Assembly (NCBI GenBank): GCA_046760305.1
Contig: JBHIDX010000003.1
Coordinates: forward strand, 2,526-66,525
DNA: 64,000 bases
From: Candidatus Aminicenantales bacterium
Lineage (GTDB): Bacteria; Acidobacteriota; Aminicenantia; Aminicenantales; Aminicenantaceae
Reading direction: 5' to 3'
The stretch's first letter is position 1. Every line of letters begins with the position of its first letter. A program made the position numbers and the translations under genes. Below the pieces are notes generated by a model that saw only the letters and a list, made by a program, of their open reading frames with translations, was not told where the DNA came from and made no database searches. Below are positions 1,984 through 47,930 of the stretch, one piece after another.

Positions 1984-4773
1984 ATGAGACCGAGACGTTT
2001 TTCACTCCTTTATTTTTTAACCATAATAATCCTTCTCGCCTCTTTGTTGTGTGCAGCAGAAACGGTAAGCTTTAACCTTGAAGAAGAAAACGGGATAAAG
2101 GTTTTCAGGCTAAAAAACGAAAAAATAGGCTGTGCCATCTTTTTTGCTGAAGCCAGGCTTGAGAAGGATAGTTACACAGCTCTCTCTCGTTGGGTTGCTG
2201 CTTTTAATAGACCTCAGTTCACAATTACAACCAGTGCTGATTTCGTACTCAACGTTATGTGGACAGGCTGGAGAGCGCCAGGAGAGGAGAATAATGCTGC
2301 CAATCCTGTTCTTTTTTCCAAAAAAGATTTCAAGCTGGAGGACTACAAGCTCAGAGAACTGCCGGGGGAGATAAAAGAGCTTGATCTCCTTTTCAGGCAC
2401 CGCTCTCCACAGTATGTTCATCTTGAAATTCGGCTCACATACAGACTCGAACCCGAATCATTCTTTGTTCGGCGAAAAGTTTCTGTCAGAGACAGGTCTC
2501 ATGGAGACCATTTTCTCAGGTGGCTCTGGCCCCTGAGAGCCGAGATTCAGGGTAAAACATCTATTGTCAAAAGAGGCGGATTCGGGCAGCCCGCTGCCTT
2601 ACGCACCAGTAAGGGAGGCGTTTTTTTTGGCCTTGAATATCCAGCTTCTGAAAATTCTCTGGAAAAAATCTCTAAGAAAATAACAGAGATTCAGTGCGGC
2701 CAGGAAATGGGTGAGATTATAAGGGATTCATGGCTTGAAAGCGAATGGGTCGTTACGGGCCTGGCCCCTGAGCCCTACTTGAAGCGCTGGTTTTTTCTCT
2801 ATCTTGACCGCATCCGCGTCGCTGAGATCCGCCCTTATCTTCTCTACAACAGCTGGTATGACCTTCGCGCCCCCGAGTATGTGGAGAACGAGGAAAGAGC
2901 GATGACAGAAAAAAACGTGCTCCGCACCATAGAAATTTTCCGCCACAGACTGTACCAGGAGCGAGGCCTTAGCCTTGATGCCTTTGTTCTAGATGACGGC
3001 TGGGATGTCTACCGCAGCGACTGGAAACTGAGCCCAAACCAGTTTCCGAGAGGGTTTACTCCAGTGGTAGATGCACTTAAGAGCATGGGCACAGAACTCG
3101 GCCTCTGGCTGGGGCCTATAGGCGGGTATTCACATCGAGAGTGGAGGGTGGGATGGATGCGTGAGCACGGTTACGAAACCGTGGGCAGCCAGATGTGTGT
3201 GGCTGGAAAAAATTACAGCAAACTTCTCAAGAAGAGAGTCGTTGACTTTGCCCGTAACGATAAAGTCCGCTACTACAAATGGGATGGAATTCAATTCAGC
3301 TGCAGCGAACCAGACCACGGCCATCTTCCAGGCATTTATTCGCGTCGTCAGGTGATGGAAAGTGTGACTGAGATGTGCCGGGCGGTGAGGAAAGTAAGCA
3401 AAGACATGTTCCTTAACATAACCTCAGGCACCTGGCTCAGTCCCTGGTGGCTTAAGTATGCCAACACCATCTGGATGCAGGGCGGAGATTACGGCTATGC
3501 AGACGTTCCTTCCATAAGCCGCAGGGACCAGGCTATAACCTACCGCGACAGTATACTGTATGAAGGTCTGAAAAAAATGGATGCCTGGTTTCCAGTGGCA
3601 AACCTTATGACCCACGGTATCATAAAAGGCCATCTCCAGATGCTGGGCGGAAAAAGAGAACCTCTGGATAAGTTTGTTGACAATTCCCTGCTTTATTTTG
3701 CCCGTGGCCCCTCCATGTGGGAGCTCTACATCTCGCCTGACCTCCTTTCAGAAAGCGAATGGGATGCACTGGCTGCAGCCATAAAGTGGGCACGCGACAG
3801 GTTTTCTGTGCTCAATTCCACCTGGATGGCCGGTGGCGACCCTGATGAGCGAAAAGCATACGCTTATCTTCATTTTAAGGAGAAGCGTGGTATCATTGCC
3901 TGCCGCAATCCATACATCGAACCTCAGACACTCAGAGTTGAACTTTCTCCCTCCTGGGGGCTTGACCCGGAGGCTTCTTCCCTTGTTGTGGAGAGAGTCT
4001 ATCCAACACGGATGATTCTACCCGGGTTAAAAAAATCAGGTTCGAGGCTAAATATTCCTCTCCAGGGATACGAAACAGCTATCTTTGAGCTCTATCCCCT
4101 TGAGGAAGCAAGGGAACCGCTGCTTGCCGGAGTGAGATTTGATGTCCTGTCATCAGAGAAGGGGAGGAGGATGGTTCTTTACGAGGTGGAAAAGCCGCCC
4201 CTGCTCCTCAATCCTGAGATAGTTGAAAAAGTATTCATCGCTGGAAAGGAATACAAGCCGGGAAAACTATCTTTGCCTCTCAGCAAACGCCTCGAACCTG
4301 TAAAAAATGTAAGTTTTAGTGAATTTGACGAAAGGAATAAAAGCACCATAAACATCCATTTTGACCTCGAAGAATTCACCACGGATGCTTTCTTGGCCTT
4401 GCTCCTGGAACGAGGTGAAAGAGCTCTGAGCGATAAGGACCCTGAGGTGGAGATTTATGTTGATGGCGAAAAGGTACTGCCCGGGGTTGTGCGCCGCAAA
4501 GGAAAATGGGGATGGTACCTGGTGAATGTTAGGTACGGAAAACGCTCGGCTCAGGTTCAGATAAAGCCTCCCCGAGGGATGAGTGAGTGGCGAGGAAAAG
4601 CATCAGTCTGGGTAGTGTGCCTGGTTGAATCCAAGGCAACAGAAGTTTTTTTGGAGACTGGAAGCGAAAATTTGATATTCCGCCCCATGCCACCCCGGCC
4701 ATGGCCACCTGGCTTTTCCAGAAGAAATGTGAAGTTGGGAGAGGTTGAGGTTGACTTAAGCTTAAAAAAATAG
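1984..4773 (+). CDS. Secreted alpha-galactosidase-like glycoside hydrolase (GH36/clan D-like)
   Basis: Signal peptide; YNSWYD, FVLDDGWD, GLWLGP and YYKWDG motifs typical of GH36/27 TIM barrels; GAGGAGG RBS. Confidence 0.75.
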   Translation: MRPRRFSLLYFLTIIILLASLLCAAETVSFNLEEENGIKVFRLKNEKIGCAIFFAEARLEKDSYTALSRWVAAFNRPQFTITTSADFVLNVMWTGWRAPGEENNAANPVLFSKKDFKLEDYKLRELPGEIKELDLLFRHRSPQYVHLEIRLTYRLEPESFFVRRKVSVRDRSHGDHFLRWLWPLRAEIQGKTSIVKRGGFGQPAALRTSKGGVFFGLEYPASENSLEKISKKITEIQCGQEMGEIIRDSWLESEWVVTGLAPEPYLKRWFFLYLDRIRVAEIRPYLLYNSWYDLRAPEYVENEERAMTEKNVLRTIEIFRHRLYQERGLSLDAFVLDDGWDVYRSDWKLSPNQFPRGFTPVVDALKSMGTELGLWLGPIGGYSHREWRVGWMREHGYETVGSQMCVAGKNYSKLLKKRVVDFARNDKVRYYKWDGIQFSCSEPDHGHLPGIYSRRQVMESVTEMCRAVRKVSKDMFLNITSGTWLSPWWLKYANTIWMQGGDYGYADVPSISRRDQAITYRDSILYEGLKKMDAWFPVANLMTHGIIKGHLQMLGGKREPLDKFVDNSLLYFARGPSMWELYISPDLLSESEWDALAAAIKWARDRFSVLNSTWMAGGDPDERKAYAYLHFKEKRGIIACRNPYIEPQTLRVELSPSWGLDPEASSLVVERVYPTRMILPGLKKSGSRLNIPLQGYETAIFELYPLEEAREPLLAGVRFDVLSSEKGRRMVLYEVEKPPLLLNPEIVEKVFIAGKEYKPGKLSLPLSKRLEPVKNVSFSEFDERNKSTINIHFDLEEFTTDAFLALLLERGERALSDKDPEVEIYVDGEKVLPGVVRRKGKWGWYLVNVRYGKRSAQVQIKPPRGMSEWRGKASVWVVCLVESKATEVFLETGSENLIFRPMPPRPWPPGFSRRNVKLGEVEVDLSLKK

Positions 4774-7292: not shown

Positions 7293-7320
7293 AAAAAGCG
7301 CAAAGAGAGACAAAGCCTAA

Positions 7321-7762
7321 GAAGCATCTTTTTTTCCGTGATGATTATAAGAGGGTTATGAGAGTATGGTTATAGTATTATAAGAGTTATGAGAGTTTAT
7401 AAGAGATATGAGGGGGAGCATATAAGAATATAAGAGAAATATAAGAATATAAGAAAATAAGAGAATAAGAGGGGACGGGCCTCACTAATTTCAGTGTTAT
7501 CAGTAAGATAGATGCAAATATGAAGCCGATTTTATGCCTTAGACTTCATTTTTGGGGTCAAAAATGGGCTTTAAGGATTTTCTTAAAATCACTTCAAGTT
7601 TAAAATTGATTTTTGCCCTTAAAAATCGCATTTAAGGCCTTTTTTAGGGTTAAAATATTACGTAATTTGTTGATTATAAATAAATTGCTGCGGCCCGTCC
7701 CCTTTCTTCTTCTTTCTTCTTTTAATATTATGCTTGATTATCACGGAAAAAAAGATGCTTAC
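7321..7762. mobile_element. MITE-like non-autonomous element
   Basis: Perfect 21-bp inverted repeat AAGCATCTTTTTTTCCGTGAT (7322-7342 / 7740-7760); flanking direct repeat CAAAGCCTAA(G) at 7311-7320 and 7763-7772; AT-rich and non-coding. Confidence 0.7.
7345..7470 (+). repeat. Degenerate purine-rich tandem repeat (TATAAGAG/TATGAGAG-like units)
   Basis: More than 10 imperfect ATAAGA/ATGAGA units; only one C in about 125 nt. Confidence 0.8.
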
Positions 7763-7779
7763 CAAAGCCTAAGTTTCTC

Positions 7780-7808
7780 TTGCAAAAAAAGTCTTTAAAA
7801 GCTATCTT
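7780..7808 (+). promoter_or_regulatory. Putative sigma70 promoter for the NusG paralogue operon
   Basis: TTGCAA-17 bp-TATCTT, 38 nt upstream of the ATG, with a GGAGG RBS. Confidence 0.5.
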
Positions 7809-7846: not shown

Positions 7847-8329
7847 ATGGAAAGCTGGTTCGTGCTAAATACCAAGCCCAAGAAAGAAGGTCAGGTAGAG
7901 AAACTATTCATCGAAGGGGGCTTCAGGATATACAACCCGAAATACCTCCATGACAACAAGATTAAGCCTTTCTTTCCTGGCTACGCCTTCATCTATTTTG
8001 ACTTCCCGGCCCAATACCAGACAGTACGCTATACCAGGGGAGTAAAAAAGGTAGTGGGCAACAGAGAGGGGCCGATTCCGATATCGGAAGAGATTATTAA
8101 CGGGATTAAGGCTCGAGAAGTAGACGGCTTGATCGAGCTCGAAAAATACGGCGAGGAGCCTGAAGTGGGAGATGAGATTGAAGTGGTAGAAGGTCCTCTC
8201 AGAGGACTTAGAGGTATATTTAAAAAAGAAATAAGCGATAAAGAAAGGGTGATGATTCTTCTCAATTATGTTTCTTACCAGGGAAAGGTCTTTATAGAGA
8301 AAAAAAAGTTGAAAAAAGTCCTCAAATAA
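7847..8329 (+). CDS. NusG paralogue antiterminator (RfaH/UpxY-like)
   Basis: NGN domain (WFVLNTKPKKE, PFFPGYAFI, YTRGV) plus KOW domain (GDEIEVVEGPLRGLRG). Confidence 0.9.
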   Translation: MESWFVLNTKPKKEGQVEKLFIEGGFRIYNPKYLHDNKIKPFFPGYAFIYFDFPAQYQTVRYTRGVKKVVGNREGPIPISEEIINGIKAREVDGLIELEKYGEEPEVGDEIEVVEGPLRGLRGIFKKEISDKERVMILLNYVSYQGKVFIEKKKLKKVLK

Positions 8330-47821: not shown

Positions 47822-47930
47822 AGATTGGGATTCTCACGGAATAAAAGATGTTTACAAAAGGTCCTGAGTTGACATCAAAGGAGATATGTAATAAGTAGTA
47901 AGAAATTAATAGCGGTTCGGGTAGAGTGAG

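Follow-up and report, generated by a model that had tools for sequence, protein, structure and literature searches.

A probable chimeric transposon in a Candidatus Aminicenantales genome: a promoter-facing MITE shell around a gene-less TIRtron

Two described groups of mobile elements bear on the locus analyzed here, a 443-bp element with nested inverted repeats at positions 7320-7762 of a 64,000-nucleotide stretch of DNA (hereafter the window) from a Candidatus Aminicenantales bacterium. The first group comprises the TnGBS, ISLre2 and ISKra4 elements, for which inverted repeats (IRs) of 18-39 bp, direct repeats of 8-9 bp, a sigma-A promoter lying 13-17 bp from the IR and most often at 16, an orientation set by IR asymmetry and circular intermediates have been described (Guerillot et al. 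2014, PMC3942029). The second comprises the TIRtrons with their TIRYT genes, named by Di Nocera et al. (2013, PMC3733652), with GGGGWSAS as the motif of their terminal inverted repeats (TIRs), and equated with subclass 2.1 by Quentin et al. (2018, PMC6006769); in the literature searched, the term TIRYT was found in these two papers only. The repetitive extragenic palindromic (REP) sequence is described as a self-palindromic unit of 20-40 nt with a GTAG (or CGTC) tag, arranged in compact inverted doublets (PMC3733652).

Our analysis indicates that the element in the window is very probably a chimeric non-autonomous transposon, in which a promoter-targeting miniature inverted-repeat transposable element (MITE) of the ISKra4/ISLre2-like kind forms a shell around a gene-less TIRtron. 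The original prediction, made from the letters of the window, had taken its layered symmetry for a nucleoprotein substrate of transposition or inversion, more elaborate than a typical MITE. The element is indeed MITE-like and more layered than is typical, but the layers are two separate elements with enzyme families of their own, and the symmetry arises because these two mobile elements are nested, not because one substrate is elaborate. Both layers are described kinds of element; their nesting, together with the tandem "stutter" arrays discussed below, are the new parts.

The window lies on contig C3 of genome G000 (2.49 Mb in 139 contigs, 92.9% complete); in what follows, C denotes contigs of this genome, G the genomes of relatives and L fetched loci. 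The 21-bp perfect TIR, the inner IR, the two boxes placed 27 nt from a GGGG start and the hairpin at 7547-7566, all listed in the original prediction, were found again at the same positions. The outer TIR is perfect over 21 nt (7322-7342 / 7740-7760), and a repeat search extended its arms to 24 nt at 96% (7322-7345 / 7737-7760). Its 21-mer was matched in none of 100 shuffles and occurs twice in the window, where one further match has three mismatches (47833-47853). The inner IR, AGGGGACGGGCC, is located at 7470-7481 / 7692-7703 and is the perfect part of a 44-nt pair at 70% in the repeat search. Taken alone, the inner 11-mer at one mismatch is not unusual (two matches are reached in 15 of 100 shuffles), and the inner IR is counted as real because of its inverted placement and because it is kept in every copy. 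The interior also contains three hairpin modules of T5-loop-A5 form, which are direct copies of one another. As for coding capacity, the only open reading frame (ORF) of at least 40 aa touching the element is a mechanical 61-aa frame across its right end. The coordinates of all features are collected in Table 1.

Table 1. Features of the element and of its promoter-side flank (window coordinates)
Feature	Position	Strand	Basis
Left copy of the 9-bp target-site duplication (CAAAGCCTA)	7311..7319	.	9-bp duplications at the same place relative to the TIR in 5/5 full copies
Left terminal dinucleotide AG (GG in most copies) and outer TIR of the ISKra4/ISLre2-like MITE shell	7320..7345	+	21-mer identical in other genera; bounds a UPF0236 transposase gene
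Left purine-rich tract of degenerate tandem flank/inner-TIR junction units (like ATAAGAG + GGGAC)	7346..7469	+	Also on stand-alone inner elements
Inner TIR arm 1: AGGGGACGGGCC and imperfect extension through the TATCAGTAA box	7470..7505	+	Downstream of the gene in TIRYT-bearing copies
Hairpin module A, holding hairpin 7547-7566	7539..7585	+	After the stop codon of the Y1 gene in C101 and G006
Site of the TIRYT (Y1 transposase) gene in gene-bearing relatives; gene absent here	7580..7600	.	C101 matches flank a 258-aa ORF
Hairpin modules B and C, direct repeats of module A	7600..7656	+	Upstream of the Y1 start codon in gene-bearing copies
Inner TIR arm 2: GGGGACGGGCC and extension through AATCAACAAATTA ("consensus IHF box")	7663..7703	-	Repeat search and copy comparison
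Right stutter tract, pyrimidine-rich on the + strand, purine-rich read inward	7704..7724	-	Copy comparison
Outer right subterminal stretch, outer TIR (7737-7760) and terminal AC (GT inward); promoter-facing end	7725..7762	-	Copy comparison
Right copy of the 9-bp target-site duplication	7763..7771	.	Copy alignment
Probable promoter of the NusG-like gene: TTGCAA, 17 nt, TATCTT	7780..7808	+	First hexamer 17 nt past the element end; fits the family peak
NusG-family gene (context)	7847..8329	+	Pfam NusG, 52.9 bits

A BLAST search of the element against its own genome recovered six full-length copies (C3, C4, C7, C63, C35 and C29), a nearly full copy on C44 and many further pieces at contig ends. 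The right end was reached at 19 places in the genome, which gives about 19 copies, and on C101 a Y1 gene lies between the inner flanks; the original prediction had looked to a genome search for further copies and for a gene in the longer ones. Alignment of seven copies placed the true ends at GG (AG in the window) on the left and AC on the right. All five full copies for which both flanks are available carry a 9-bp duplication, perfect in four of them and with 8/9 in the other, and in the window this is CAAAGCCTA on both sides. The 11-nt direct repeat noticed originally, which a repeat search of the region recovered at 7311-7321 and 7763-7773, is a real match, but the true duplication is 9 bp: the extra "AG" is the element's own left dinucleotide, which coincidentally matches the bases after the right duplication. 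Many contigs end inside the element, often at its variable tracts (e.g. C6, C9, C20, C29, C30, C50, C58, C94 and C117). The element is a main cause of the fragmentation of this assembly, and the copy number in the assembly is a lower bound. Additionally, in four public runs from one study the region is present as contigs that stop within the element; joints within 7355-7465 in these runs correspond to other copies with different tracts, and their summed depth, which is not a copy number, is far higher over the core than over the flanks. Other MITEs of the same genome include a 330-bp type known from other genomes (C14) and a 124-bp mini-version (C34).

Evidence on the shell came from the distribution of its TIR. 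A DNA search gave matches in 17 of 40 relatives, mostly to the outer TIR alone, and at up to two mismatches the TIR had 93, 71, 43, 32 and 27 matches in five related genomes, with none for the reversed control. Twelve elements read in relatives are 177-398 bp long, with 7-9 of 9 flanking bases matching, and their interiors are unrelated, none being like that of the window. When metagenome contigs were scanned for the exact 21-mer, at least 119 stretches matched, and the 80 loci fetched were mostly MITEs or single ends. One of them, L127, is an insertion sequence (IS) at 199-1592, with the TIR exact at one end (21/21) and matched at 15/21 at the other, and it carries an intact 427-aa ORF that stops 9 nt short of the TIR and scores 65.3 bits against Pfam UPF0236 (cut-off 24.3). 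This transposase is related to both ISKra4 and ISLre2, and passes the equivalog threshold for neither. Furthermore, a UPF0236 fragment adjoins an exact TIR in L108, L113 is a 1293-bp derivative, and the relative with the most TIR matches (G008) contains a decayed C-terminal fragment of an L127-type transposase, with 63% identity and two stop codons, that ends directly before an exact TIR. We take the outer TIRs to mark a family of MITEs that descend from IS with an ISKra4/ISLre2-like (Pfam UPF0236) transposase. The original prediction had made the novelty of the element depend on its ends not being those of a known IS, and in substance this novelty falls away, as the same TIR bounds a transposase-bearing IS. 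MITEs with the same TIR in G008 and G020 (L052-L056) share a GC-rich internal module (e.g. around "GCTGGGGCAAAGCGAGCG") that is unrelated to the interior in the window.

With the ISKra4/ISLre2 group as described (PMC3942029), the element shares IRs within 18-39 bp, direct repeats within 8-9 bp, oriented insertion 13-17 bp from promoters and a UPF0236-type transposase adjoining the same TIR. It differs in that the copy in the window has no transposase gene and its interior is a second mobile element; the word MITE, moreover, does not occur in the main text of that paper (0 occurrences). Judging the papers listed in literature searches by their titles and the beginnings of their abstracts, we found no description of MITEs from these IS families.

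Other candidate partners for the shell were considered and rejected. A possible resemblance of the ends to those of IS1-like elements was set aside in favour of the UPF0236 link. UPF0236-like ORFs in 4 of 41 genomes belong to ISH6-family elements with a different TIR: those of the relatives G030, G032 and G003 are ISH6-like, and their TIRs share just the inner CGTGAT with that of the window's element. These ISH6-family IS, of about 1.4 kb, are found within the order of this bacterium (L042, 606-2031; L043, 1350-2797; L045, 1356-2804, from G030, G032 and G003); L042 scores 413 bits against NCBIfam ISH6, and L043 and L045 are assigned by similar TIRs alone (ending ...ACGTGAT or ...GACGGGA). ISH6 has been described as almost confined to archaea (PMC3942029). 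An IS256-family gene (L081, 2212-3504) and an IS5/DUF772-type transposase gene (L120, 200-1645) are found immediately inside MITE ends of this family. Neither is closed off by a second TIR, and MITEs of the same subtypes exist that do not carry them. Both genes are probably secondary IS insertions into MITEs.

The statement of the original prediction that the window holds no transposase was borne out, as genome-wide searches with PF01797, PF01609, PF00872, PF06782 and the L127 transposase placed no hit on the window's contig; the PF01609 search gave two weak hits on other contigs of this genome. In this regard, TIR-like pairs up to 6 kb apart in this genome (up to five mismatches) were MITEs and chance pairs only, with no autonomous copy among them.

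We also scanned the 60 nt outside each of 126 ends, 25 from this genome and 101 from metagenome loci, for promoter pairs, defined as TTGACA-like and TATAAT-like hexamers with up to two mismatches each and 16-18 nt apart. A pair starting at offset 15-17 was present at 26 of 60 GT ends (17 of them at 16 nt), compared with 3 of 43 GG ends and 2 of 60 shuffled GT flanks. At the GT end in the window, the 9-bp duplication is followed by 8 bases and then by TTGCAA-17 nt-TATCTT, and this probable promoter lies 39 nt upstream of the NusG-family gene, which is followed by a DegT-type aminotransferase gene. Such a position could suggest that the insertion now serves the NusG-like/sugar-aminotransferase operon as a regulatory module, for instance as a bent or protein-binding region upstream of it, and that the conservation of its core reflects selection for this role, given that the element stands directly upstream of the promoter, that the cores are 96-100% identical and that the genes downstream encode a NusG paralogue and a DegT-type aminotransferase. 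However, placement upstream of a promoter is a property of the transposase family and not of the locus, and high identity among about 19 dispersed copies is expected from recent amplification. Additionally, no Rfam family was matched (best hit E = 0.28, 20.8 bits versus a gathering score of 70), the region scan found no terminator-like site, and the automated scan gave one inward-facing promoter-like site across the right end versus 2.0 expected in shuffles. On this evidence we consider co-option improbable.

The inner layer was also found outside the shell. The query at ~155-413 of the element (window 7465-7723) was matched without outer TIRs on C89 (99%), C96 (93%), C88, C134, C14 and C90, and on C101 its two halves (query 160-270 and 290-414) lie on either side of a 258-aa ORF that scores 43.2 bits against Pfam Y1_Tnp (cut-off 23) and in which HUH (H-I-H) and Y-I-x-x-N motifs were read by eye. 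The same arrangement exists in another genus (G006), with a 242-aa orthologue of 71% identity. The best NCBIfam match of the Y1 orthologue is the REP-associated tyrosine transposase (RAYT) family REP_Tyr_transpos, with 72.9 bits versus 24.7 for IS200 (cut-off 55). In the sense of the gene, the first half runs from a stutter tract through GGGGACGGGCC, the AATCAACAAATTA region and hairpin modules C and B to the gene, and the second half from the gene through hairpin module A, the TATCAGTAA region and GGCCCGTCCCC to a stutter tract; in the window the gene is missing between ~7580 and 7600.

Homologues of the Y1 gene are present in 13 of 41 genomes, with one to three in each. Of 15 homologous loci, 12 have an IR, 11 nt or longer, that lies 100-262 nt upstream of the gene (10 of the 12 in 100-143), with its partner 84-253 nt downstream (10 in 84-141). 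The IR sequence varies by lineage, being GGGGACGGGCC, GGGGTCGCACC, GGGTCGGACC or of types ending TTGGCTG, and the window-type repeat GGGGACGG fits GGGGWSAS at 7 of 8 positions. Judged by its sequence, the interval 7470-7703, with the GGGGACGGGCC repeat at its borders, is a TIRtron lacking its gene and made of the two fused flanks of a RAYT-like Y1 gene (TIRYT). Among the matches listed, the inner IR occurred in 0 of the 80 fetched metagenome loci holding the outer TIR, so that the chimera is specific to this genome among the genomes and loci searched.

As in described TIRtrons, a RAYT-like Y1 gene is flanked at about 100 nt by TIRs starting with GGGG (PMC3733652), the TIR families are moderately repeated in the genome and the elements form a well-defined group in Acidobacteria-related lineages (PMC3733652, PMC6006769). 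In contrast to these, the window holds two fused flanks without the gene, and in the C101 protein Pfam finds Y1_Tnp alone at E up to 0.01, with no C-terminal domain of the helix-turn-helix (HTH) type; the available text of the same two papers mentions neither junction stutter arrays nor enclosure in a DDE-type MITE (PMC3733652, PMC6006769). REPIN-RAYT systems likewise combine dispersed non-autonomous IR units with one or a few Y1 genes flanked by the same repeats (Bertels and Rainey 2011, PMC3116915). The inner arms here differ from them in starting with GGGG, in not being self-palindromic and in lying ~210 nt apart, and most copies of the inner unit appear to have been spread by a DDE shell. 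With the IS200/IS605 family there is a common Y1 HUH fold (Pfam Y1_Tnp), and directly oriented hairpin modules flank the place of the gene; however, the score against the IS200 model is below its cut-off, and that family is not known to have the terminal inverted repeats that are present here.

Given these TIRYT genes, the whole element, including its outer TIRs, could have been moved by the Y1 (TIRYT) tyrosine transposase, with a merely coincidental link to a DDE enzyme. An outer-TIR variant on C77 lies ~170 nt upstream of a second TIRYT gene, which puts such ends beside TIRtrons of two subfamilies, as would be expected if the Y1 enzyme moved them. Nevertheless, the 9-bp duplication recurs regularly from copy to copy, which is characteristic of a staggered cut of the DDE type, and we know of no Y1 HUH enzyme (IS200/IS605) that makes regular target duplications. 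Moreover, the TIR bounds UPF0236 transposase genes, C77 has a single such end, which faces a host promoter at the usual distance of the family, and TIRYT loci in other genomes carry their own, different TIRs. All these data make movement by the Y1 enzyme alone extremely improbable.

The C77 locus (2400-3500; L194) deserves description of its own. Its TIRYT gene encodes 242 aa and is associated with a different IR, ATTCTAGTTTGGCTAGC, with tandem copies. The single outer-type MITE end, a variant ending CCGGGGT that is common in the relative G001, is found ~40 nt beyond this IR and faces the TTGACA-17-TAATAT of the next gene. Because this TIRtron abuts an outer-type end facing a host promoter, the two kinds of element have met at least twice.

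The original prediction had also described integration host factor (IHF)-like boxes and a core of curved DNA. The boxes are indeed placed symmetrically, each beginning 27 nt from the GGGG start. A comparison of copies and diverged subfamilies shows both arms to consist of GGGGACGGGCC, a few variable bases, AATTT, a few bases and (A/T)ATCA(A/G), and the two boxes are homologous parts of an imperfect inner repeat of ~36 nt. With WATCAANNNNTTR as the IHF consensus, matches in the window are at the level of chance (4 versus 3.77 expected), and one of the two boxes fits. The A/T spacing of the core is likewise present, but AA/TT periodicity near 10-10.5 nt was reached or exceeded by 13 of 2000 mononucleotide shuffles and by 108 of 2000 shuffles that keep runs, and the ~11-nt spacings are the arms of the three hairpin modules. 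Neither IHF binding nor curvature thus gains support beyond chance or beyond the effect of the hairpin structure. As single-stranded DNA, the core folds better on both strands than all 200 shuffles (z = -4.4 and -5.0); in the predicted fold the inner repeat is the closing stem, and the hairpin at 7547-7566 is included in both the minimum free energy and the centroid structures.

These properties touch the possibility of one purpose-built nucleoprotein substrate for one machinery of transposition or inversion, working with IHF and bent DNA. The symmetry is real, a WATCAA-type box is kept at a fixed distance on both inner arms even in diverged copies, and the single-stranded core folds as just described, all of which speaks for such a substrate. 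We find it highly improbable nonetheless, as the outer TIRs enclose unrelated interiors in other genera and, among the matches listed, in 80 of 80 metagenome loci, the inner unit stands by itself, free of outer TIRs, at six places and also around the Y1 gene, the IHF consensus is at chance and the hairpin modules explain the A/T phasing. Nothing points to the inversion proposed originally, and the copies read had no neighbouring gene for an invertase or another recombinase.

The tracts that separate the shell from the inner IR vary much more than the core. The 232-nt cores of the seven chimeric copies share 96.1-100% identity; their left tracts measure 82-159 nt and the right tract with the subterminal stretch 37-94 nt; C3 and C7 have identical cores and different tracts. 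The tract units join a few flank bases to the first letters of the inner repeat, in a degenerate tandem arrangement (e.g. ...ATAAGAGGGGAC...), and stand-alone copies and the TIRtrons of other genera have the same pattern with other unit sequences. The copies lying outside the ends mostly include 0-3 TIR letters, some up to 14. We scored an end as stuttered when its 9-nt junction word (six flank and three TIR letters) recurred, with up to one mismatch, in the 60 nt outside it. The word was repeated at 14 of 26 TIRtron ends from 13 loci of other genomes or subfamilies and at 24 of 39 GGGGACGGGCC-type ends of this genome, compared with 58 of 2800 random positions in the same loci (2%) and 3 of 126 outer DDE-type ends. 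Both arms show the purine bias in the inward direction, and the arrays are therefore no microsatellite that existed before the element landed. Stutter arrays are a general property of TIRtron ends and represent fast-changing tandem duplications of the junction, which may be caused by nick-associated duplication by TIRYT or by polymerase stalling at the paired repeat.

A more specific possibility, which we put forward tentatively and hold to be doubtful, is that the arrays are footprints of the TIRYT reaction and that the core inside the MITE is still a live substrate of the C101 TIRYT. The Y1 enzyme would then nick repeatedly at or just inside the GGGG end of each IR, and imprecise repair or priming would duplicate the junction, that is, the flank and the first 0-9 letters of the inner TIR. 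If this were so, two unrelated transposases would act on the chimera, a DDE enzyme on its shell and an HUH enzyme on its core, which would explain how the stand-alone core on C89 comes to be one base from a shelled core.

Returning to the chimera of a MITE shell and a gene-less TIRtron, we infer a transposition chemistry in which a prokaryotic Mutator-like DDE transposase, supplied in trans, would recognize the TIRs by binding and excise the element, perhaps via a circular intermediate by analogy with its relatives. The element would then enter its target through a cut staggered by 9 bp, some 16 bp before the -35 box of a promoter of the sigma-70 type and with its GT end towards that promoter, which at this locus would be that of the NusG-like gene. 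As to the order of events, the interior would derive from TIRYT flanks fused at the lost gene, which kept the GGGG-type IRs, their ~36-nt extensions and the three hairpin modules. The chimera would have formed once in the lineage and then been multiplied as a whole by the DDE system, reaching about 19 copies; a single formation followed by DDE spread is probable because all copies share the same short outer stretches.

Several points weigh against this account. A single base separates the stand-alone core on C89 from the core of the window, and up to 9 separate chimeric copies from each other; a single capture with simple amplification may therefore be too simple a history. Repeated movement of the core in or out of the shell, or gene conversion, may be the alternative, and 18 variable columns of 233 do not give the direction of transfer between stand-alone and shelled cores. 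The L127 ORF scores 176.8 bits against NCBIfam ISKra4 (cut-off 205) and 154.6 against ISLre2 (cut-off 200), and the flanks of L127, on a contig of merely 1773 nt, show no matching 9-bp duplication. On the side of the inner layer, the Y1 protein, at 72.9 bits, is just under the REP_Tyr_transpos cut-off of 80, and no solved structure matches it by sequence. The promoter in the window matches the consensus at 8 of 12 positions and was missed by the automated scan, which needs 9 of 12. Searches of this genome with PF06782, PF00872 and the L127 protein found no cognate transposase, and present mobility is unproven because no cognate gene was found, the genome is 92.9% complete and many of the 139 contigs end in the element. 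Lastly, no contig of the public runs joins 7319 to 7763, which leaves an empty site or an inversion unseen, and contigs cannot show absence.

The chimera suggests that Mutator-like MITEs which target promoters are able to take up a second non-autonomous element and disperse it. The analysis also brings together a clear set of Aminicenantes TIRtrons with and without their gene, and the stutter arrays give a simple, countable mark of TIRtron ends that may point to the cut sites of TIRYT.

Some further observations concern relatives of the two layers elsewhere in the same genome. A lone TIR end of the same family, with three mismatches, lies at 47833-47853 of the window on the minus strand, just past the stop codon of a gene; outward of it follow 13 nt, TTGACA, 17 nt and TAAGTA (flank to ~47905), and it looks like a truncated relative still upstream of a promoter. 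A third Y1_Tnp gene, of 333 aa, is located on C61 (3906-4904, minus strand), and the C-terminal part of its product appears HTH-like by eye. On C101, beside the gene-bearing TIRtron, the stretch 3467-3808 looks by eye like the C-terminal remnant of a gene of the DNA-alkylation-repair type, and a 17-nt piece of the outer TIR lies at 3430-3450, just past the stop codon of that remnant.

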